The notes below the pieces were generated by a model. The model saw only the letters and a program-made list of their open reading frames with translations, searched no databases and had not been told where the DNA came from. A program made the translations under genes and the position numbers. Positions 4,656 to 61,281 of a stretch of DNA of 64,000 nucleotides are shown here, one piece after another (within the stretch, counting starts at the first letter, position 1; the number at the start of each line of letters is the position of its first letter). This DNA comes from a virus. Location of the stretch: IMG/VR virus record IMGVR_UViG_3300022562_001652, positions 32,001 to 96,000 of that record, one strand, 5' to 3'.

Positions 4656-5302
4656 CTCTTCTTTCTCCTTCCACGACACCTAGAACACGTCAGGTAACCC
4701 TTGGTTCTCTTCCTACCACAAGCGCAAAAGCCCGCCTTTCGACGAGCCGTCCTTCTCTCTCGTGCTTTCTGATTCTCCTCGAGAACACAACCTCTGCATA
4801 CTCGTGTAAGACTACCCCACCCACAAATCACGCAGATTCCACTCCGTGCCTCTTCGTCTCGACGACGTCTCTTGCGCTCACGCTGTCGAGCAGCCATGGC
4901 TCCCTTCGTGTGCTCCTCGCATCGGTTTCCTTCGTGAGCAGGACGAGAGCACCAAAGAAGGTCACAGAGGCCCATGCTTCGACGTTCCTCAATACTGTGC
5001 AGAAAATTATTCCTGACTTCCTTGTTTCGCCGTTCGAGAGCCCTCTTACGAGAATCGTGGTTCTTCTTCTCCCTGTGCCTTTCACAGAGAACCTTGCCTC
5101 CGGTAGAAGCACCACACTGCAAGCACAGCCCTTGCCTTCTACGCTCTCTTCGAAGCTGTCGGTGTTTCTCGTTGTTCTCTTCCAAATGTCTTGCACAGAA
5201 CTGACGCCCTTTGAGAGGCTCTGTGCAGCTGATTACTCGACAAAGACCTGCTCGGCGTTTTTCGTACTCACGTTCTTTCAGCTTCTTGAGCTGACGCTTC
5301 AT
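4652..5302 (-). CDS. basic Cys-rich protein with repeated GxCxxC...CxxH/C modules
   Basis: About five GLC/GIC/GFC-initiated modules separated by Arg-rich segments. Confidence 0.7.
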   Translation of the reverse strand: MKRQLKKLKEREYEKRRAGLCRVISCTEPLKGRQFCARHLEENNEKHRQLRRERRRQGLCLQCGASTGGKVLCERHREKKNHDSRKRALERRNKEVRNNFLHSIEERRSMGLCDLLWCSRPAHEGNRCEEHTKGAMAARQRERKRRRRDEEARSGICVICGWGSLTRVCRGCVLEENQKARERRTARRKAGFCACGRKRTKGYLTCSRCRGRRKKR

Positions 5303-5618
5303 CGTCCTTGGCCTCTTCGTACTCCACGATGACGCAAAGCCTCTTCAAACGCTTACCTACGAGAGGACGAAAGGCCTCCTGTAAGGTACTACAGCAGAGA
5401 CGCCTCCTGATAGACGGATCGGGAGGAGCGACCAGGTGTTCGCTGTCGGAAGAACACTCGTCGATCACAATTCGTTGCTCAGGACCCGCCAAGCGCACTA
5501 CTGACGGCCGGCCGACATAGCGCTGAAACTGGTATTCGTAGTGACTGCTGATAGGAACCCCGTTTTCACAGAACGGACATTTGAAATCATCAACGCGTAC
5601 AGGGACGCCGCTACTCAT
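5268..5618 (-). CDS. hypothetical protein (CPFC)
   Basis: ATG 5618 after AGAAGGAA; overlaps both neighbours. Confidence 0.55.
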   Translation of the reverse strand: MSSGVPVRVDDFKCPFCENGVPISSHYEYQFQRYVGRPSVVRLAGPEQRIVIDECSSDSEHLVAPPDPSIRRRLCCSTLQEAFRPLVGKRLKRLCVIVEYEEAKDDEASAQEAERT

Positions 5619-5826: not shown

Positions 5827-6400
5827 CGTCTGTCTCCTCCGCCTGTTCGTTTTCTGTCTGAGCTTCCTCTCCGAAGAACTTCTTTTCCAGGTAGCGAGCG
5901 ACAAGATCCAGGACTGAAGCTGCGTACTTGAGATCCTTGTCAGGATCCCCTGTCATACCCTCTGGGGGAAAGCGCGTCCCTCGAAGCTTCGAGGTAAAGG
6001 CCTTCAGTGGAATACCATACTGCAGACCGATGGAGAGCACGATCGCCACAGCATCCAGAGCGCCGCGCGCCAAGCCTCCGGTCTGTCCAACGCGGAGAAA
6101 GACCTCGCCAAGCCTCCCGTCTTCATATGTGTTGGGAGTGATGTACACGTCGACCGGACCGTCTGCAGAACGGATGGTGAAGTGCCTGGTAAAACCATTC
6201 CTCTCGTCAGGCAGACGTTCTCGGAATCTTTTCTTCTTGACGGATCTTTCTACCTCAAGAATAGCGGCTGTCTCTATCAAATCGACTACATCGAATATTT
6301 CTTTGAGAAGAGGCCTGCTCTTCTTGCATTCCGCATCCACCTTGTGGAGGTAGGTCCTGAGTAGAACGAACAAGTCCAAGTCGCTAACCTTGTCGTTCAT
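5819..6400 (-). CDS. stand-alone class II ribonucleotide reductase C-terminal (NrdJ-C/TSCPD-like) domain protein
   Basis: RERLPDER.GFT, YITPNTYEDGRLGEVF, SIGLQYGIPL, TRFPPEG, ASVLD; start at ATG 6400 coupled to the helicase stop. Confidence 0.8.
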   Translation of the reverse strand: MNDKVSDLDLFVLLRTYLHKVDAECKKSRPLLKEIFDVVDLIETAAILEVERSVKKKRFRERLPDERNGFTRHFTIRSADGPVDVYITPNTYEDGRLGEVFLRVGQTGGLARGALDAVAIVLSIGLQYGIPLKAFTSKLRGTRFPPEGMTGDPDKDLKYAASVLDLVARYLEKKFFGEEAQTENEQAEETDGA

Positions 6401-7737
6401 ACGCCACGATCCACAACTCGGGCTCGAGACCAGTCCATCGCCACCGGCAGCTCGAAGCCAGCGGGACCTCCCCGGTTCTTGTCCAGATAGATTCTCCCGA
6501 TCATGGCCTTCTTCTCCTTGTCGTCTTGGTTGAGGACGAGCATCAAATCGCAGACATGCGCTTTCTTGATCGAATCGGACACGTTCTTCCCTGTCGCCGT
6601 TCCCCGCCCGATCCCCTCCCTGTTGAGCTGCGAAGCCGTCCACCCTGCCAGATTGCGCTCTCCAAGCAGAGCACGCGTCTCGACATAGACGCTGCCCTGA
6701 TCTTCGTAAGCGTCGTTCTTCTTCACTTCCGCAGAGGGAACCATGAGCTCGCACGTGTCGATCACCAAGAGATCTGGATAGAAGCCTATCTGCCCTTCCA
6801 GACGCAGCAGGTGAGATCGGAGAGCACTGACAGTGAGCGACATGGGAGGAAAGTACTTCACGACGAGGAACTCCCCCAACTTCGTTCCCAGATCGTTCAC
6901 GTTCTCCCGAATCACGTTCTCCTCTTCTATGATATCGGAGAGGGAGACGTCGGCGAACCCGGCGTCGAAGCGTTCGCACACCATGTCTTCGTCGAGCTCC
7001 ATGGTGACGTAGAGCACCTTCGCGCCGCTCTCCAGGATAGCAGCACGACTAAACGAGATCAGTGTGCTCGACTTTCCCGAACCATAAGCCCCAAGGACGC
7101 AGCCCAACGCCTTTCTCCAAATCCCTCCAGCACGGGTGTATTCATCCACGCGTGTGCCTGTAGAGATTCCCTTTTCCACGGCTTCCTTCCTCCTCTCTAT
7201 CCGGCTCTCTAGATCACGCACATACAACTGCCCCACCCCCCCGGCACGTGCAGCGTTCACGTTCAGGATCCGACTCACTTCACGATCCACAGATTCGAAG
7301 TCCTGGATCTTGAGATGGTCGACGCTCTTGATGATAGCGTCGCGAATCACCTGGTTCTTGACGAACTCGAAGATCGCGTCCTTCACGAAGGAACGATCCT
7401 TCACCGTCTTCTTCAAACGAAGTATGGCCGCCTCCGCCTCTCCTTCGTTTTCTTTGTGCAAGAGGCGGCCGATCTGCATGTCCTTCCTGAGACGCATGCG
7501 AATCGCGTCCAGACTCGCCCCCGTCCCGTACCTCCGAGCATGAGAAAGCAAGACGTTAGCAAGCCACCTCCGCACTCTGCCATCGAACAGCCGATGATCC
7601 AGGTACTCGGCTATCGCACAACAGAAATTCGGATCTTGGTACAAGGTCCGAAGCACGCGTCCTTGAAAAGCGGTATCGAACTCAACGCTCTTCGGCTTTT
7701 CGCCACCCTCTGCCACTTTTCTACCCGCCGCAAGCAA
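6397..7737 (-). CDS. dnaB: replicative DnaB/T4 gp41-like helicase
   Basis: Walker A GAYGSGKS, LYVTMEL, LLVID, WTASQLNR, KNRGG. Confidence 0.9.
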   Translation of the reverse strand: MLAAGRKVAEGGEKPKSVEFDTAFQGRVLRTLYQDPNFCCAIAEYLDHRLFDGRVRRWLANVLLSHARRYGTGASLDAIRMRLRKDMQIGRLLHKENEGEAEAAILRLKKTVKDRSFVKDAIFEFVKNQVIRDAIIKSVDHLKIQDFESVDREVSRILNVNAARAGGVGQLYVRDLESRIERRKEAVEKGISTGTRVDEYTRAGGIWRKALGCVLGAYGSGKSSTLISFSRAAILESGAKVLYVTMELDEDMVCERFDAGFADVSLSDIIEEENVIRENVNDLGTKLGEFLVVKYFPPMSLTVSALRSHLLRLEGQIGFYPDLLVIDTCELMVPSAEVKKNDAYEDQGSVYVETRALLGERNLAGWTASQLNREGIGRGTATGKNVSDSIKKAHVCDLMLVLNQDDKEKKAMIGRIYLDKNRGGPAGFELPVAMDWSRARVVDRGV

Positions 7738-53467: not shown

Positions 53468-55198
53468 CTACTCCATATCTATGATCAGGTACTCGTCTTC
53501 GTCTCGCTTCTGCTTCTCTCCTTTGCGGAGATCGTTATCACGAGACACGGAAGCGTGTACGGAGCTGACCCAGTCGTCGCGCAGGAAGCCCTCGTCCACG
53601 GGCACTGGCGCAATCTTCTTCTCGCCGATGCGAGACGCAGCATCGAGAAGACGCTGCGCTCCTTGGTGCTCTTCATGACCGTGGTCTTCTCCCTCAAACA
53701 TGCGGTCTTCCTCATGCTGGGGTTGAGCGGCGGCCTGAGACGCGTCTCCTCCGGCCGCCTGTTGCTGCTGAGCCATCTGCGCCTTGAACTGAAGAGCGGC
53801 GATGTACGCAGGGTTCATGATGATGTCGCCACCCTCCTTCAGAGGCCCTAGATCCTCGAGCTCGCGGACCTCATTTACCGTGAGGTAGGTCTGTCCCTGT
53901 TTCGCACGAAGCTCGACCGCTTGTTCCTCGGTCTTGGCATCCAGCCCGACGAATTCAAACTCGAACTGATCATCGATCGGCCAGACGACGTGGTTATTCA
54001 GAGACTCCGCGTAGAAATGAAGTAGTGGACGAAGCCCTCTGTCCTTCGATGCCTTCTGCTGTGCTTCGTTCGTCGACATGAAGAGGGGCTGCTGCGCCAC
54101 GCTGCCACGAAGATCGTGGTTGATCTCGGCAGGATCTACCAGGAACACAGCGCAGGCACACTTCACCAAGAACTCCACCCAGAGCTGATACTCCATCTCC
54201 TTGTTGGTGGCCTGAAACGGGACCCATTGGATCTCGTCAGAGTTGACGATCGGCGTCTTCCACGCCTGCCCGACGCCTACGAGCTGCTGGTACCAGCTCT
54301 TGCGGAGCTCCTCCAGCTTCCTCTCGTTCAGCTTCCCCTTAATATTCAGGATCCCCTTCGCCGTAGTTCCCTGACTGAAGCCTTTGGCGTTGTAAGTCAG
54401 AGCCCACAGAAGCCAGGTGATCGTCTGAACTAGGATCTCTACTTCCGACAGACCGTAGCCGAAGGATCGGATGTCCGTGCTGGGGTTGCGCACCAAGAAG
54501 GCCAGCTCATCGGACGTATACTCGCGGACTTTACGCGCATCGATCACCTGCGCATACTCGATCCGGTTTTTGAGTTCCGCCGTAGACGGGGGTGTTCCTC
54601 GACGATTCTTGGGATGCGCGATCCTGACGGTGCCGGCGTCAACCGCGTGGATCGAATGCAAGCTCCCTCCGCGAGTCCACACCTTCTCGAAACACCCTCG
54701 ATCCAAGGTCAAGGAGTCGGGCACGACCTTGCGAAGTAAGTTCGTCAGAGAACCCCTCTTCAGGTTGTACTCAACTCCTGTATTGACCAAGAAGTGAGTC
54801 AAGTAGTCGACGCGATCCCGCTCCGAGTCGCTGAGCCTCCGAGCCGGATTGCCCCAACGTGGTTTGAATCTGAACCCGACGCTGTACTTGTTCGGCTGGG
54901 GCTGGCAGAAAGAGGTGATCTGGTTCTTCCGAAGAAGAATGATCGAAGAGATGATGTCGACGTGCTTCGCAGCGTTTCGCAGATCGTTATCGGAGAGACG
55001 AGAAGGGATATTCCTGTATCCCATCCCGAACGAGTCGGCCATCATGTCGGGATCGACGAAGTAGGACTTGGGCTCCTCTTCTTTAGGAGGACCGTCGTCG
55101 TCCTTGACTCCCGCCTGAGCAAGTTTCTCGGCAAACGTTCCGAAAGCCTCTATAGCAGCTTTCGTGACTTGTTCCGGAATGAACTCCACTAGGCTCAT
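53468..55198 (-). CDS. portal protein
   Basis: DSLTLDRGCFE, AVDAGTV, RNPSTDI..FGYGLSEVE, TVNEVR...LGPL..GDII. Confidence 0.92.
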   Translation of the reverse strand: MSLVEFIPEQVTKAAIEAFGTFAEKLAQAGVKDDDGPPKEEEPKSYFVDPDMMADSFGMGYRNIPSRLSDNDLRNAAKHVDIISSIILLRKNQITSFCQPQPNKYSVGFRFKPRWGNPARRLSDSERDRVDYLTHFLVNTGVEYNLKRGSLTNLLRKVVPDSLTLDRGCFEKVWTRGGSLHSIHAVDAGTVRIAHPKNRRGTPPSTAELKNRIEYAQVIDARKVREYTSDELAFLVRNPSTDIRSFGYGLSEVEILVQTITWLLWALTYNAKGFSQGTTAKGILNIKGKLNERKLEELRKSWYQQLVGVGQAWKTPIVNSDEIQWVPFQATNKEMEYQLWVEFLVKCACAVFLVDPAEINHDLRGSVAQQPLFMSTNEAQQKASKDRGLRPLLHFYAESLNNHVVWPIDDQFEFEFVGLDAKTEEQAVELRAKQGQTYLTVNEVRELEDLGPLKEGGDIIMNPAYIAALQFKAQMAQQQQAAGGDASQAAAQPQHEEDRMFEGEDHGHEEHQGAQRLLDAASRIGEKKIAPVPVDEGFLRDDWVSSVHASVSRDNDLRKGEKQKRDEDEYLIIDME

Positions 55199-57094: not shown

Positions 57095-57651
57095 GTTCCT
57101 TCTTCCTTCAAGAAGTTCTCCCACATCCGACTCGAGATCGGTTTGGGATCCGAAGTACGAGCCCCTTGGTACTTCGCGTCCGACTTGACGCCGTACGGCC
57201 TGTCCACGACGCCCTCCACCGTCATCCAGTAGATCTGTCCGATGGGCATCTTCGGATAGACACGAACACACTGGACTACGCTGATCTCCATGGTCCAGTG
57301 CCCGCAGAACCCGACGTCTCCTCTGCCGGCCGTGGCGTGGATGAAGATGCCGAGGCGGCCAGCAGAAGACTTCCCGTCCAGAAACGGGACGAAGTCGTGC
57401 GACTCCGTGTATTCCTCCGTGACGCCGAGATAGATCCTGCCCGGATAGAGAATGGTCCCCTCATCCGGGATCTCGAAGAGGAAGACCTCGTTGTTCTTGG
57501 CCGCGTCGATGAGCCCGGGATCGTACATGAGAAGATTGCGCCCGAGCCGAACGTCGTAGCTGTTCGATCCCAACCGTTGTGGGTCGAAGGGCTCTACGAC
57601 GATCCTGCCTTTGTCGATCTCTTCTCGGATCCTGCTATCTGAGAGAATCAT
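57091..57651 (-). CDS. dcd: dCTP deaminase
   Basis: MILSD, SYDVRLG, GKSSAGRLGI, GDVGFCGHWTMEI, IGQI, KYQG. Confidence 0.92.
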   Translation of the reverse strand: MILSDSRIREEIDKGRIVVEPFDPQRLGSNSYDVRLGRNLLMYDPGLIDAAKNNEVFLFEIPDEGTILYPGRIYLGVTEEYTESHDFVPFLDGKSSAGRLGIFIHATAGRGDVGFCGHWTMEISVVQCVRVYPKMPIGQIYWMTVEGVVDRPYGVKSDAKYQGARTSDPKPISSRMWENFLKEEGT

Positions 57652-58343
57652 GAAAGCCACCCCCTCTTCTCCAAAACGAGCAGCATCTCGTTCACCGTCT
57701 CGTCAGGGTTGTTGCGCTCAGTATTCACGTACGCCACCTTGTCCACAGCCCCTGCTTCTTCGAGCCGGCTGCTGTAAAGGGCGTAGTGTCTGTGGGTTCT
57801 TTCTAGTAGGTCTTCGTCCTTATCAAAGGAAGAGAGGTTTCCCCTTCCCTGCATCCTGTCCTTAGTAGCTTGGGGTGATGCCAGCAGAACAAAAAGCAAA
57901 GTGGTGTCTGGAACCAAAGTAAAAGGATCATCACCACCCGACCTTAAAGCCCTAGGAACGATGTTCCTAAAAACACGGTGCACTACAGACGACCACCACG
58001 CGCTACCTTGATACACGTAGCTGGTCGTCAGCGGGTGTCGATCGCAGATGACGACCCCTCCCTCCTTCAAGAAAGGGTTGATGTGCTTGAAGTGCTCGTC
58101 GAGTGCGTCTGCGACTAGCAGATGCAGCATGGCGGCATCGTGGAAGCATGAGGGGGAGCTACCACCACCCGTGGACAACTTTTCCCGAATCAACTTCCCG
58201 ATCGGACTATGCTTCGTAGGAAAGTGAAAAGCCTTTACCAGGATCTGCTTCTCTTGAATCCTCTCCACCAGACCGGCTACGGCGGTCGTCTTGCCTACCC
58301 CGTCTGGGCCATCGACGATCATGAATCTGCGATTACCCTGCAT
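57648..58343 (-). CDS. tmk: thymidylate (dTMP) kinase
   Basis: DGPDGVGKTT P-loop, FP, VICDRH..TSYVYQG. Confidence 0.88.
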   Translation of the reverse strand: MQGNRRFMIVDGPDGVGKTTAVAGLVERIQEKQILVKAFHFPTKHSPIGKLIREKLSTGGGSSPSCFHDAAMLHLLVADALDEHFKHINPFLKEGGVVICDRHPLTTSYVYQGSAWWSSVVHRVFRNIVPRALRSGGDDPFTLVPDTTLLFVLLASPQATKDRMQGRGNLSSFDKDEDLLERTHRHYALYSSRLEEAGAVDKVAYVNTERNNPDETVNEMLLVLEKRGWLS

Positions 58344-58370
58344 CTGAAACCTCCTCTTCTGGTGAACGAA

Positions 58371-58379
58371 AGGCTAGCA
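58371..58379 (-). promoter_or_regulatory. extended -10 promoter TGCTAGCCT for tmk-dcd
   Basis: Intergenic, upstream of the GAGGAGG SD. Confidence 0.4.
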
Positions 58380-58456
58380 CTTTTCGCCTAAAACAGCTAC
58401 GAAACGTGTACCTTGTTTTTTCACCTAAAACCGCGAACATGCTGAGAAAATAGTTG

Positions 58457-58485
58457 TTGACATTTTATTAAAAATATGCTACATT
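58457..58485 (+). promoter_or_regulatory. strong sigma70 promoter TTGACA-N17-TACATT with extended TG
   Basis: Perfect -35, 17-nt AT-rich spacer, TGC-TACATT. Confidence 0.85.
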
Positions 58486-58499
58486 TCAGCTTGCTGAAA
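58484..58499. promoter_or_regulatory. palindrome TTTCAGC-TT-GCTGAAA over the -10/+1 region (candidate operator)
   Basis: Perfect 7-bp inverted repeat. Confidence 0.45.
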
Positions 58500-58905
58500 A
58501 GGTGGCGGAGCCACGGTTGGTGCAGCGGTCTCCCGGCAGGGAGGCCCTGGACAACCAACCACTCCTCGTAAAAGAGATCAACACAACCAAGCAAAAATGA
58601 AGAAGCGACAAGGTCGAGCTCCGCGAGACCGTCTTCGCTTCTTCATTCGCGAAGCGAATCTTCGCGCTCCACGAGGAAGAAAAGCACGGAGCAGACGGCC
58701 AAAGCTCTGTGTTCTCACGAACACGATCCTACAACCCCTGTGGACACTGTCTCATAGAACGTGTGAAGTAGGACCCACGTAGCTCCTACCCCTCGCCAGT
58801 CTGCCTCTTTCCTCCCTCCCCCTTTCCTCTCGTATCGGCTCGTGTATAACGCTTGTTATAACTTGGTCTGCTTTTCCCCTGATCCTGGAAAAAGCGGAAA
58901 GGGAG
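58492..58905 (+). ncRNA. candidate structured non-coding RNA (~320-410 nt)
   Basis: At least seven consecutive stems downstream of the promoter, including a perfect 13-bp helix; G.U pairs favour the + strand. Confidence 0.6.
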
Positions 58906-58914
58906 CTCTTTGAG

Positions 58915-59220
58915 TCAGGGTTTGCGCAGACAGCGCGCGTCCGCGATCGCTGCTCGAGCAACGAGCAACCGGACGTTGAAGAGGAGGGCAGCGTGTTGCC
59001 CGGCGTCGTAGCACACCTCGTCAGGAAGACACTTCTTAGCTAGACACGTTTCCAGGGAGTCGTCGTCTTCGCATGCGTGCGGCTCGCCGACCGGGAGAAG
59101 GTCGGCGAGCATCGGCATATCCAGGCAAGGAAGAGTCTCGGTACGCACGACCACGCTAGGTGGGGGACATGTCTTGCAACAAGCCTCTAGGAGCAGGGTC
59201 ACCAGAAGGAGAGCTCTCAT
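58915..59220 (-). CDS. o-spanin (Rz1-like lipoprotein)
   Basis: Signal peptide MRALLLVTLLLEA-C, Pro/Cys-rich; overlaps the i-spanin end. Confidence 0.65.
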   Translation of the reverse strand: MRALLLVTLLLEACCKTCPPPSVVVRTETLPCLDMPMLADLLPVGEPHACEDDDSLETCLAKKCLPDEVCYDAGQHAALLFNVRLLVARAAIADARCLRKP

Positions 59221-59561
59221 GGAGAGTCCTCTTCTTTCTTGGGCCATAGAGAGGCCATCTCCTTTGCCTGCTGCTTGGCGTTCGCGCTCATGTTGCTCTT
59301 CAGGATCTCTTGCAGCAGAGCGTCGGCTTTCGCAAAGGCTGCCTTGTTTCTCTTCTCCTCTTCTTCCTTTTGCATCTCTGAGTCCAGGAGCTCTTTCTCC
59401 AACGTAGCGAGGTTCTCACGCATCGATCCGATGCGTGTGTCACGCTCAGACAGCTCCTTCTTCAGGCTCTTCTCGTCCGACAAGCTGATACGCCACAGGA
59501 CGAAAAAGAATCCGGCGAGCACCCCGCCTCCCAGGAGGCTCACCAGGGTATAGACGCTCAT
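59217..59561 (-). CDS. i-spanin (Rz-like)
   Basis: N-terminal TM plus long coiled coil; follows the holin. Confidence 0.7.
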   Translation of the reverse strand: MSVYTLVSLLGGGVLAGFFFVLWRISLSDEKSLKKELSERDTRIGSMRENLATLEKELLDSEMQKEEEEKRNKAAFAKADALLQEILKSNMSANAKQQAKEMASLWPKKEEDSP

Positions 59562-59980
59562 GGGCTCGTCTTGGCGAACCCACGCGCGATGGTGTAGCCG
59601 AGCGCCACCAGCGTAGACTGCGCCAGAGCAAAGGCCTGCGCGACAGGTCCGTCGGTCGGCATGAGGCCTGAAGTCGCCGCCAAGCCTACAGCCAAGCTCA
59701 CCACAGTGAGCCAGAACTCCGTCGTCTTGTACCCAGGCCCTGGCTCGTCCGACTCTCCGTGCTTCACCAGGCCGCGAACCATGGTGTAGCCGAGCGTGGA
59801 CAGCATCATCGTGACGAACGCGATGACCTGTCCGACGACGCCGCTGTCGCTGAGCAGGTGGTTGGCTCCGAGCAGGCCCAGGACGGCGGCCAGCACAGTT
59901 AGCCAGAACTCCGTCGTCTTGTATCCTGGCTTGATGGGTGCTTCTTCCGTAGAAGAGGTCGTGAGAGTTTCAGATGTCAT
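59558..59980 (-). CDS. holin, internally duplicated (2 x 64 aa, 4 TM)
   Basis: PGYKTTEFWLTV and LGYT..RG..K each occur twice, 192 nt apart. Confidence 0.75.
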   Translation of the reverse strand: MTSETLTTSSTEEAPIKPGYKTTEFWLTVLAAVLGLLGANHLLSDSGVVGQVIAFVTMMLSTLGYTMVRGLVKHGESDEPGPGYKTTEFWLTVVSLAVGLAATSGLMPTDGPVAQAFALAQSTLVALGYTIARGFAKTSP

Positions 59981-60329: not shown

Positions 60330-60381
60330 CGCGTTCTCGAAAGAGGGACGTTCGTCAAAAAGAGAGAAGAGGGAGGACGAT

Positions 60382-61281
60382 ATGAAAATCATCGACAAGC
60401 CGCAAGTGTTCCTGATCGCGTCTCCGACCCTGCGTTGGCAGGGTATCGAGAGGTATCTGGCAGAGGTAGGAGGAGAAGCATGGGAAGAGCAGAAGGTATT
60501 ATCGGAGGAGTCTGGTCTAAATGAGCCAGAGGCAGAGACTCTCGTCGAGTTCATGGGGCGGGTCTGCTACCGAAGCTGGAAACCAGGACTGAACGCTAAC
60601 GTGACGAAGGTGAGGACGGACACGAAGGAGTATCTTCATAACGTCCTGAAGAGTGGGCACGGCCGCCTCCTCGAGCACGCGAACTTCAGTTTCGTCTTCC
60701 ACAACGTCTCTCGAATTTTGACACATGAGCTGGTTAGACATAACGTCGGTACGGTGTTCGCGCAGGAGTCGATGCGCTTCGTCAGGCTCACCGACATCCC
60801 GTTCTGGTTTCCTGAGTGGGCTCTTTGTGATGAAGAGTTGAAGAAGCACGCCTACGATCTCCTACAACACATGGAAACCTTCCAGCTCTGGATGGCGAAG
60901 CACTTCGAGCTCGACGAAAAGGAGATCACCTGCCCGAACTGTGGGGGGAGTGGGAAATGGGAGATGGGGTGTGTGCGAGAGTCCTGTTCTGCGTGCGGCG
61001 GCTCCGGGAAGTTCGCCAACAGCTTTGCTAACAAGAAACACAAGACATCCTTCATGCGTCGATTCGCCCCTCAGGGCGTAGCCACCGGTATCGGAGCTAC
61101 GTTCAACATCCGAGCGTTACGGCACATCATCTACATGCGGACTGCGCTGGCCGCTGAGGAAGAGATCAGGTTGGTCATGGACGATGTGGCTGAGATCGTC
61201 CTACATGAGGTGCCGAATCTCCTGCAGGACTACTCTCCGAATGAAGACAGGGAGTGGATCCCTGAGTTCATGAAGGTGTGA
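60382..61281 (+). CDS. thyX: FAD-dependent thymidylate synthase with a DnaJ-type zinc-finger insertion
   Basis: GRVCYRS, GHGRLLEH, SRILTHELVRH...QESMRF, NIRALRH, AEEEIR. Confidence 0.92.
   Translation: MKIIDKPQVFLIASPTLRWQGIERYLAEVGGEAWEEQKVLSEESGLNEPEAETLVEFMGRVCYRSWKPGLNANVTKVRTDTKEYLHNVLKSGHGRLLEHANFSFVFHNVSRILTHELVRHNVGTVFAQESMRFVRLTDIPFWFPEWALCDEELKKHAYDLLQHMETFQLWMAKHFELDEKEITCPNCGGSGKWEMGCVRESCSACGGSGKFANSFANKKHKTSFMRRFAPQGVATGIGATFNIRALRHIIYMRTALAAEEEIRLVMDDVAEIVLHEVPNLLQDYSPNEDREWIPEFMKV

Follow-up and report, generated by a model that had tools for sequence, protein, structure and literature searches.

A host-type promoter convergent on a putative lysis cassette and a candidate structured antisense RNA in an uncultured phage from marine sediment

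Antisense RNAs that overlap the 3' end of their targets include the lambda oop RNA, directed against cII, and the type I antitoxins RatA and SR4 from prophage regions of B. subtilis. These RNAs, 77-220 nt in length and equipped with an intrinsic terminator of their own, are produced from strong promoters that converge on the 3' end of mRNAs encoding small membrane-active proteins or regulators; the overlap takes in the terminator hairpin of the target, and RNase III is the expected effector. In PAK_P3 and PAK_P4, early cis-antisense RNAs extend over structural genes, and the one over the endolysin gene (PAK_P4as15) has been proposed to delay lysis (PMC5563952). The locus described here, a 571-base non-coding gap in the genome of an uncultured phage from marine sediment, combines elements of both types of systems. 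It shares with PAK_P3 and PAK_P4 the virulent myovirus-type genome, the antisense orientation convergent on late or lysis genes, and the proposed early restraint of late functions. The RNAs of PAK_P3 and PAK_P4 were seen by RNA-seq and lie within genes, whereas the present one is predicted from sequence, would start in an intergenic region, and has a long, structured 5' domain; the sequences are unrelated. Compared with oop, RatA and SR4, the apparent target is a putative three-gene lysis cassette rather than a single toxin, and no intrinsic terminator is seen on the plus strand. Another potential analog is the phi29 pRNA, also an orphan structured RNA encoded after a strong early sigma-A/sigma-70-type promoter in a phage genome. 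The phi29 pRNA is among the covariance models of Rfam, none of which matches this locus, and both the position in the genome and the type of phage differ.

The gap is located within the 64,000-nt stretch of DNA that was analyzed (the window; all positions refer to it unless genome coordinates are indicated) and is flanked on both sides by genes on the minus strand. Its features, and those of the adjacent sequences, are as follows.

58344-58456, minus strand: leader and upstream region of tmk, with the tmk start codon at 58343, the Shine-Dalgarno sequence GAGGAGG and a structure z-score of about 0
58381-58394 and 58418-58431, plus-strand coordinates, within the tmk leader: two direct repeats, TTTTCRCCTAAAAC, with no further copy in the genome when up to 2 mismatches are allowed
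58447-58486, both strands: 40-bp window with 82% AT, the genome maximum (the runner-up has 72%)
58457-58485, plus strand: sigma-70-type promoter, consisting of the -35 element TTGACA (58457-58462), a 17-nt spacer, TGc of the extended -10 (TG at 58477-58478) and the -10 element TACATT (58480-58485)
58462-58489, minus strand: weaker promoter-like site CTGAAA-16-TAAAAT (9/12) that faces tmk and fully overlaps the plus-strand promoter
58502-58514, both strands: hairpin 1, GTGGC-GGA-GCCAC; as minus RNA it has -6.7 kcal/mol, and CUUUUC comes next, giving a terminator shape that stays below threshold
58515-58560, plus strand: hairpin 2, a stem of some 19 bp that is interrupted by three bulges and contains a single U.G pair, -28.8 kcal/mol on plus versus -22.9 on minus
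58561-58595, both strands: A/C-rich linker, unpaired in the predicted plus RNA (probability about 0.8, and 0.95 at 58583-58592)
58596-58647, both strands: hairpin 3, a perfect 13-bp stem with an inner 4-bp stem, -26.8 (plus) and -24.8 kcal/mol (minus)
58648-58666, both strands: hairpin 4, CGCGAAG-CGAAT-CTTCGCG
58667-58803, both strands: competing weak helices without a local excess of structure (z from -1.6 to +0.1 on plus)
58804-58831, minus strand: purine-rich, Shine-Dalgarno-like run with GGAGG motifs, which on plus is a 28-nt pyrimidine run
58832-58914, both strands: two small hairpins (58845-58860 and 58867-58898), right behind the stop codon that ends the o-spanin-like ORF
58915-59247, minus strand: o-spanin-like ORF, coding score 3.7 (near zero)
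59217-59561, minus strand: i-spanin-like ORF, coding score 32.7
59558-59980, minus strand: holin-like membrane protein of 140 aa, coding score 30.0

The promoter proposed in an earlier reading made without database searches (the sequence-only reading) lies on the plus strand exactly where it had been placed, with a predicted start at about 58492-58493. When scored against the sigma-70 consensus TTGACA/TATAAT, whose recognition by the host is assumed, it retains all six bases of the -35 element and four of six in the -10 element (A2 and T6 among them), together with the 17-nt spacer and the TG. No other site on the two strands of the entire 113,815-bp genome agrees with the consensus at 10 or more of the 12 positions, and the promoter is embedded in the windows of 40, 60 and 100 bp with the highest AT content in that genome. 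In shuffles of the gap, 10/12 was reached in 2.3% of the trials (p 0.023), and 10/12 accompanied by TG in 0.3% (p 0.003). Genomes simulated with a Markov-1 model contain 0-6 matches of at least 10/12 (mean about 2.6), so that, apart from its location, the match is not significant. Sigma-70-like sites are, however, half as frequent in the genome as in the simulations (15 versus about 30), and the surviving perfect -35 element is therefore less likely to be noise. None of the other intergenic regions of the genome contains a comparable sigma-70 site; the phage thus clearly uses further promoters, and k-mer counts and inspection by eye revealed no common phage promoter motif across these regions. 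A phage that shares dcd (54% identity) has a near-consensus TTGACA/TATGAT promoter downstream of a terminator, within an AT-rich island; canonical promoters thus do occur in such phages. The 9/12 site on the minus strand is not significant alone because local shuffles yield 9/12 in 14-18% of the cases. An invertible promoter was considered and rejected: the flanking inverted repeats are just 9-11 nt long and contain mismatches, and no recombinase is present among the neighboring ORFs scanned.

The helices previously listed for the gap all exist where they had been placed, and hairpins 1-4 are present in the minimum-energy and centroid folds alike. For the segment 58493-58670, which encompasses these four hairpins, the predicted fold has z = -6.2 and the minimum-energy structure coincides with the centroid. 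The complete fold of 58493-58914 has z = -4.56 on plus and -3.29 on minus, which corresponds to the top 0.4% and the top 1.25%, respectively, of 800 windows from the same genome after dinucleotide correction. The structure signal is limited to 58460-58700; 120-nt windows in 58700-58914 show z of about -1 to 0 on plus, so that the helices in that part are locally no better than chance and alternatives compete with them. Accordingly, the expectation that the gap folds better than shuffled sequences holds, as predicted by folding, for 58493-58670 and not for 58700-58914. Within the structured part, an alternative 8-bp pairing of 58634-58641 with 58651-58658 exists because GAAGCGA is common to hairpins 3 and 4. 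The argument that G.U wobbles work only on the plus strand comes down to a single U.G pair in hairpin 2; what stands is the greater stability of the plus RNA in hairpin 2 (by 5.9 kcal/mol) and hairpin 3 (by 2.0 kcal/mol). The advantage of the plus strand in z-score is partly compositional because shuffles of the G/U-rich minus strand fold better.

The gap shows no coding potential. There is no frame with a positive score, and every ORF scores negatively; all three kinds of stop codons interrupt every frame, and no recoding of a single stop opens one. The idea of a hidden recoded ORF arose from a suppressor-like tRNA encoded at another place in this genome and was dropped on the same grounds, the frames staying broken by stops. 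Neither the 61-aa plus-strand ORF nor the 69-aa minus-strand ORF has a match in Pfam, and the former has none among the PHROGs. The sequence-only reading, which saw neither a credible protein gene nor a tRNA, tmRNA, SRP or RNase P RNA in this region, is thus borne out: Rfam 15, whose families also include 6S, GOLLD/ROOL, HEARO, riboswitches and leaders, yields zero matches in the window at the gathering score, the search of 58300-59000 at E<=10 retrieves only four sub-threshold matches to eukaryotic miRNA, lncRNA and snoRNA families, and ARAGORN finds no tRNA or tmRNA.

Comparative searches returned no homolog of the gap. Blastn against 50,697 phage records found nothing, and five related virus records share with the gap only chance matches of 11-19 nt. 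No close relatives were obtained among viral contigs, either through tmk or through the portal alone; the best tmk match among 5.8 billion proteins is 32% identical, and a tmk-guided scan of metagenomes found nothing. The exact 20-mer from hairpin 2 has five chance matches in metagenomes, all with dissimilar flanks. Relatives identified via dcd and portal alignment (27-54% protein identity) have no alignable intergenic DNA, and a single-sequence covariance model of 58493-58670 reached a best E of 0.8 in 46 sources (743 kb). Homologous intergenic regions, in which compensatory changes could be compared, are absent from the collections searched. Among sequencing runs, the locus was traced to one DNA run, which may be the source of the window, and to no RNA run. 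The gap has no second copy elsewhere in the genome, and being single-copy it was rejected as a repeated or mobile element.

The genes in the path of the plus-strand promoter, 58915-59980, form a putative lysis cassette, as suggested by the character of the predicted proteins. Pfam and PHROG provide no names for these ORFs; relatives of the 140-aa holin-like protein are found on about 300 viral contigs, and a protein atlas places this protein in unnamed viral clusters only. The host may have an outer membrane, as the spanin-like genes suggest. The terminator scan detects no intrinsic terminator on the plus strand within the gap, and the terminator-like sites beyond it, at 59213-59227 and 59324-59341 on either side of the o-spanin start, are weak. 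Thus, the predicted plus RNA would lack a 3' end of its own within the gap, and the end near 58914 suggested earlier is merely the boundary of the adjacent ORF. Farther along, a block of plus-strand genes that includes thyX begins at 60382; in the 90 bp that precede thyX, the best sigma-70 site is 8/12.

Read on the minus strand, hairpin 3 resembles the terminator of the holin/spanin-like operon because a U-rich tail comes after it. This U/G-rich tail, UUUGCUUGGUUGUGUUGA (58595-58578), contains 10 U in 18 nt, with 5 U in the first 8, and its complement is the A/C-rich linker that appears open in the predicted plus RNA. As in typical intrinsic terminators, a stable hairpin with an immediate U-rich tail follows a stop codon and precedes the next promoter region. 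Unlike in these, hairpin 3 has a 26-nt loop with an inner stem and an A-U-rich stem base, is located some 320 nt past the stop codon, and is not called on minus by the consensus terminator scan, the loop being longer than the rule of the tool permits; genome-wide terminator and hairpin scans are too noisy for ranking it. A long hairpin with a U-tail of a similar kind closes a plus-strand gene group at genome positions 5285-5345. Much of the folding of the gap can be explained just as well by ordinary terminators of minus-strand transcripts.

The purine run at 58804-58831 also fits the minus strand. Purine runs occur on the sense strand, here minus, throughout the genome and are often located just 5' of start codons; behind this one, there is no ORF on minus, the best candidate being 15 codons that start from CTG. 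Most of the run is paired in either of the predicted RNAs; as the complementary pyrimidine run on plus, it has a probability of being unpaired of about 0.3. These observations weaken the idea that the CCTCCCTCC tract serves as an anti-Shine-Dalgarno sequence. Stabilizers of mRNA 5' ends that resemble Shine-Dalgarno sequences and lack an ORF, namely STAB-SD of cryIIIA and the polypurine stabilizer of an SP82 phage mRNA, are known (cited in PMC3997798 and PMC7509114). The likeness consists in a GGAGG-bearing purine run without a start codon and in the distant, portal-based relation (39% identity) of the present phage to the SPO1 type; the differences are that the run found here is in a 3' UTR, away from any mapped 5' end, and that the host perhaps possesses an outer membrane.

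The interpretation that we prefer, if only tentatively, is that the gap is the boundary of two minus-strand operons in which a canonical host-type promoter lies on the opposite strand, so that a structured cis-antisense RNA could be launched over the 3' UTR of the lysis operon. On the minus strand, the mRNA of the holin/spanin-like operon would carry some 330 nt of 3' UTR and stop at hairpin 3 with its U-rich tail; hairpins 2 and 1 with CUUUUC would provide a back-up terminator, and tmk-dcd would depend on the AT-rich island together with the leader that bears the repeats. From the plus-strand promoter, TTGACA-17-TGcTACATT, the host RNA polymerase in its unmodified form would start at about 58493 and produce a non-coding RNA in which the initial 175 nt or so are predicted to form four stable hairpins. 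Hairpins 3 and 4 would mirror the terminator hairpins, whereas hairpins 1 and 2, which have no obvious role in the minus RNA because both lie past the terminator tail, would be exclusive to the plus RNA and shield its 5' end. Since the plus strand has no intrinsic terminator, this RNA would be antisense to the entire 3' UTR and probably extend into the o-spanin and i-spanin genes. The promoter is oriented toward the lysis-cassette-like ORFs, and the overlap of the two RNAs would depend on the 3' ends of both. The likeliest function would be an early brake on the lysis operon, by cis-antisense action or convergent transcription while the host polymerase is still unmodified, through duplex formation and RNase III-type cleavage and/or collision of polymerases. 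Among the functions suggested previously, an antisense brake on the spanin/holin operon is the best anatomical fit. Against this interpretation, a minus-strand terminator fully accounts for the A/C-rich linker as well as for hairpins 3 and 4, 0-6 matches of 10/12 are expected per genome by chance, the neighbors have no family names, and the coding score of the o-spanin-like ORF is near zero. Nevertheless, the non-coding, promoter-led, structured plus-strand RNA is a live candidate, judging from the sequence features.

It is quite possible, although in our view doubtful, that only the minus strand matters. The hairpins would then be tandem intrinsic terminators and 3'-UTR elements for stability or processing of the holin/spanin-like mRNA, the purine run a Shine-Dalgarno-like stabilizer or a relic ribosome-binding site, the AT island the promoter region of tmk-dcd, and the plus-strand sigma-70 match either incidental in AT-rich DNA or a source of pervasive, functionless antisense transcription. 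The orientation of all the flanking genes, the U-rich tail after hairpin 3 and CUUUUC after hairpin 1, the similar hairpin with a U-tail near the start of the genome, the sense-strand purine runs, often just 5' of starts, the 9/12 site that faces tmk, and the yield of 10/12 matches in simulated genomes are all consistent with this possibility, as is the precedent of the ORF-less stabilizers mentioned above. It is less compatible with a terminator so far (about 320 nt) beyond the stop codon, with an A-U-rich stem base next to the U-tail and a 26-nt loop that violates the rule of the tool, with hairpins 1 and 2 that lie downstream of the terminator and are more stable on plus, and with the occurrence of a perfect -35 element, a 17-nt spacer and a TGn-extended -10 element in a 571-bp gap (local p about 0.003). 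An RNA of about 175-420 nt that is made early from the host-type promoter and acts in trans, as a decoy, sponge or scaffold unrelated to the neighbors, would represent a new family. The well-defined four-hairpin 5' domain (z = -6.2), the accessible 35-nt linker, the lack of Rfam matches and the unusual richness of this genome in other structured or tRNA-like elements argue for such an RNA, but it would lack its own plus-strand terminator, the opposite strand accounts for the linker and for two of the four hairpins, no second copy or relative is found in the genome, the 46 related loci or metagenomes, and there is no adjacent partner protein; this possibility appears unlikely. Equally improbable is the scenario in which the single host-recognized promoter of the phage produces the first transcript of the infection, a new structured RNA family of about 180-420 nt that acts beyond antisense while also silencing the lysis cassette; such an RNA, with a protected 5' end, might serve a host or defense protein as decoy or scaffold, or else it might be a cis-acting leader that reprograms the polymerase.

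The remaining explanations assign the gap to other processes. By analogy with T4 ori(uvsY) and ori(34), the T7 primary origin and RNA II of ColE1, the AT-rich unwinding element, two iteron-like repeats, hairpins and strong promoter could constitute a replication origin that is activated by transcription or primed from an R-loop. The most AT-rich window of the genome, the adjoining repeats unique in this genome, and the proximity (1.4 kb) to the point where gene orientation diverges and the cumulative GC skew turns are compatible with an origin. However, there are just two repeats and neither a DnaA-box cluster nor any DnaA boxes in the gap, the genes for helicase, primase and polymerase are 50-60 kb away, the plus RNA is C-rich rather than G-rich over the homopurine/homopyrimidine tract, which would disfavor a stable R-loop, and a repeat-rich block with A/T tracts at genome positions of about 102.3-103.1 kb looks more origin-like. 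The primer-RNA alternative put forward in the sequence-only reading thus gains little and is, in our estimate, distinctly unlikely. Still less probable is decay of a small gene between the lysis genes and tmk, with the ribosome-binding purine run surviving and the frame lost. Two distant relatives (G001 and G002) do have ORFs of 72-106 aa directly upstream of tmk, and the Shine-Dalgarno-like run indeed has no ORF behind it, but tblastn of the proteins of relatives (endolysin and small ORFs) against the gap gives nothing at E<=10, all frames score negatively, and perfect palindromes of 13 bp and 7-8 bp along with z = -6.2 would be unexpected in decaying coding DNA. The slimmest chance is given to an early promoter with a long structured leader of the processive-antitermination type, from which the polymerase would read through about 1.9 kb of antisense DNA into thyX and the plus-strand block. 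This would make sense of the only host-type promoter of the genome pointing at the block that starts at 60382, of stem-loops immediately after the start, and of the 90 bp before thyX offering only an 8/12 site. It requires, however, read-through of 1.4 kb of opposing genes past terminator-like plus-strand sites, shows no similarity to Rfam leaders, and would have to cope with a C-rich, G-poor segment (58785-58835) that resembles a Rho entry site.

Altogether, the significance of this locus depends on which strand is read. If the minus strand alone matters, the locus is an ordinary boundary between a terminator and a promoter, and it illustrates how palindromic terminators combined with an AT-rich promoter island can imitate an 'orphan structured RNA'; the methodological lesson would be that z-scores favor the C/A-rich strand through composition. 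If the plus RNA exists, it would provide a clear example of lysis timing controlled by an early antisense RNA driven by a host promoter, and it would be a new structured RNA without a family in an uncultured lineage distantly related to SPO1-type phages. The promoter would then be the sole entry point for the unmodified host polymerase in this genome and would bear on how the phage programme starts.

The window covers bases 32001-96000 of a 113,815-bp record with a 144-bp terminal overlap. Among public sequencing runs, the window was found in a single marine-sediment metagenome, possibly its source, and in no RNA run. Almost all genes between window positions 178 and 60291 are on the minus strand, where an ORF-poor gap separates the thymidylate kinase gene from three small ORFs:

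53468-55198, minus strand: portal protein, 39% identical to portals of SPO1-type Bacillus phages
57648-58343, minus strand: thymidylate kinase (tmk), Pfam PF02223
58344-58914: ORF-poor gap of 571 bp, with tmk on one side and three small minus-strand ORFs on the other
58915-59247, minus strand: o-spanin-like ORF that begins with a signal-peptide/Cys-rich stretch and overlaps the one listed next
59217-59561, minus strand: i-spanin-like ORF, in which a membrane helix at the N-terminus precedes a charged helical region
59558-59980, minus strand: holin-like 140-aa membrane protein with an internal duplication (PGYKTTEFWLTV present twice)

The portal is also 45-53% identical to those of about 15 uncultured contigs. 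Two of these, G001 (43% GC) and G002 (63% GC), are complete genomes of about 117 kb each and collinear with this one. Of 5.8 billion proteins searched, none is more than 32% identical to the tmk product. The three small ORFs look like o-spanin, i-spanin and holin genes by their sequence features only; none received a Pfam or PHROG name, nor did the holin-like protein receive one from the protein atlas. Parts of the holin-like protein are matched by shorter relatives encoded in about 300 IMG/VR contigs. A tblastn search of the whole genome with the relatives' endolysins found no homologue. The coding score of the o-spanin-like ORF is near zero (3.7 over 110 codons, versus 30-33 for its neighbours); if this ORF is not a gene, the non-coding stretch extends to 873 bp.

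The gap itself contains no credible protein gene and no known RNA, as the sequence-only reading had proposed. Every ORF in it has a negative codon-usage score, and all six frames are broken by all three kinds of stop codons, so that no single reassignment opens a gene, even though the genome has a suppressor-like tRNA at another place. Nothing in the gap reached the gathering score of an Rfam family, the hits at E<=10 were noise, and ARAGORN found nothing there. Elsewhere in the genome, ARAGORN called a tRNA-Ile(AAU), the suppressor-like tRNA (anticodon UUA) and an 88-nt tRNA-Cys-like gene (L133:16945-17101, genome 16945-17101, minus; L135:14918-15005, plus), none of which reaches the Rfam gathering score. 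No gap-like sequence is present in the phage records, the five relatives or the metagenome contigs searched, and a covariance-model search of 46 related loci revealed no homologue.

The promoter that the sequence-only reading regarded as the best in the window is indeed present on the plus strand, facing the minus-strand operon:

58457-58462, plus strand: -35 element, TTGACA
58480-58485, plus strand: -10 element, TACATT, preceded by a 17-nt spacer that ends in TGc

Scanned on both strands, the rest of the genome lacks any site that matches the sigma-70 consensus at 10 or more of its 12 positions, and no other intergenic region has a comparable site. Sites with 9 of 12 matches are half as frequent as expected (15, versus about 30 in Markov-1 simulations); the same simulations gave 0-6 sites of 10/12 per genome, so a single one is not surprising genome-wide. 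Within shuffles of the gap, 10/12 was reached in 2.3% of trials, and 10/12 plus the TG in 0.3%. At window sizes of 40, 60 and 100 bp, the most AT-rich spot in the genome is the one that contains the promoter. The main promoters of the phage belong to an unrecognised type. Canonical promoters do occur in such phages: in L082, a phage contig of 68% GC that shares the dcd gene, a GC hairpin with a T-run is followed by an AT-rich island in which TTGACA-16-TATGAT (11/12) precedes a 155-aa ORF (6397-6530). Both promoters share GTTGACATT, as well as CTTGCTG 4 nt past the -10 element; this resemblance was spotted after the fact and is weak.

The predicted plus-strand transcript would start near 58492-58493 and run into a series of stem-loops:

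58502-58514: hairpin 1
58515-58560: hairpin 2, about 19 bp
58561-58595: A/C-rich linker, open in the plus RNA (unpaired probability 0.8-0.95)
58596-58647: hairpin 3, a perfect 13-bp stem plus an inner stem
58648-58666: hairpin 4

All helices listed in the sequence-only reading exist, and the fold of 58493-58914 has z = -4.56 on the plus strand and z = -3.29 on the minus strand. Against a background obtained by regressing minimum free energy on dinucleotide content in 800 windows of the same genome, the plus fold ranks in the top 0.4% and the minus fold in the top 1.25%. The claim of a highly structured RNA holds for 58493-58670 (z = -6.2), where the minimum-energy and centroid structures are nearly identical, but not for the 3' half, where the helices compete with alternatives and are locally not above chance. 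Sliding 120-nt windows limit the excess of structure to about 58460-58700 (z from -3 to -6 on plus, from -1 to -2 on minus), with plus-strand values of about -1.6 to +0.1 over 58700-58914. Composition accounts for part of the larger plus-strand z, as the G/U-rich strand has better-folding shuffles. Weight is given to absolute energies rather than to the z difference: hairpin 2 favours the plus RNA by 5.9 kcal/mol and hairpin 3 by 2.0 kcal/mol.

The minus strand, which the sequence-only reading did not weigh, offers an ordinary role for part of this structure. On this strand, hairpin 3 is directly followed by UUUGCUUGGUUGUGUUGA, with U at 5 of the first 8 and 10 of 18 positions (about 2 in 1000 by a simple binomial at the genomic T frequency), and CUUUUC comes after hairpin 1. 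Such hairpins with U-rich tails have the shape of intrinsic terminators for the putative holin/spanin operon, and a similar long hairpin with a U-tail closes a group of plus-strand genes at another place in the genome. The open linker of the plus RNA would then simply be the complement of the U-rich tail, and two of the four hairpins would have an ordinary minus-strand job. Against terminator function, the loop of hairpin 3 is 26 nt, its stem base is A-U rich, it lies about 320 nt from the stop codon and it was not called by a consensus scan. The 28-nt pyrimidine run at 58804-58831, a purine run on the minus strand, includes CCTCCCTCC, which had been taken for an anti-Shine-Dalgarno device. 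This proposal is weakened: the tract is mostly paired in the predicted plus RNA, and purine runs of at least 18 nt are a sense-strand habit of this genome, many of them forming extended GGAGG-rich leaders immediately ahead of start codons (one example precedes thyX at window positions 60357-60377). Because these runs are sense-strand, the tract resembles an ORF-less Shine-Dalgarno-type leader or stabiliser; untranslated stabilisers of this kind are documented, for example STAB-SD and a polypurine stabiliser in an SP82 phage mRNA (cited in PMC3997798 and PMC7509114). The tmk leader contains two copies of TTTTCRCCTAAAAC (58381-58394 and 58418-58431, 37 bp apart), which recur nowhere else in the genome even when 2 mismatches are allowed and for which an operator is one possibility. 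A minus-strand boundary alone, with terminators, a stabiliser, a tmk promoter and this repeat-containing leader, is almost as likely as the reading that includes a plus RNA.

What still speaks for a plus RNA are the promoter statistics, the greater plus-strand stability of hairpins 2 and 3, and the position of hairpins 1 and 2. The latter would be idle on the minus strand because they lie between the putative terminator and the promoter-like site that faces tmk, whereas in the plus transcript they occupy +9 to +68; 5' stem-loops at such positions protect RNAs. The plus strand of the gap has no hairpin followed by a U-tract; the first terminator-like sites beyond it, 59213-59227 and 59324-59341, flank the o-spanin start, and the C-rich, G-poor stretch at about 58785-58835 could be a Rho entry site. 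With or without a Rho stop, the plus RNA would be complementary to the minus-strand operon's entire 3' UTR, and probably also to spanin coding sequence, which makes cis-antisense control of, or transcriptional interference with, the lysis operon the best-supported mechanism. Such a brake would act while the promoter is still recognised by the host polymerase. Lambda oop and the 3'-overlapping type I antitoxin RNAs have a comparable geometry. [quoted passage not shown]

Other functions appear less compelling than cis-antisense control. The RNA could instead act in trans and represent a new family, with support confined to the structure. A replication origin has some support from the AT-rich element, the two direct repeats in the tmk leader and the nearby switch in gene orientation, but the locus lacks a repeat array, no DnaA boxes were found, the replication genes are distant and a repeat block elsewhere in the genome is more origin-like. 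A dense series of hairpins (-30 to -38 kcal/mol) occupies genome positions 101000-107000, 5-11 kb past the window end, and includes perfect 18-19-bp stems near 102741 and 103837. Minor options are a long leader for a plus-strand gene block and a decayed small gene; the proteins encoded by two relatives at the equivalent place have no match in the gap even at E<=10.

Altogether, the description that fits the locus best is a boundary between operons that carries a convergent host-type promoter and a structured RNA as a candidate cis-antisense regulator. The observation behind the sequence-only reading is real, although overstated, its interpretation is supported only in part, and the locus would be an ordinary one if the plus RNA is not real. 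In G001, the 366-bp gap upstream of tmk (L084:4000-4170) has no sequence homology to the gap in the window but contains, beside a 72-aa ORF, 6-7 repeats of the TCTCGCG type and a 17-bp hairpin, likely a syntenic cluster of operators or iterons, which suggests that a regulatory non-coding region at this place may be a trait of the family.
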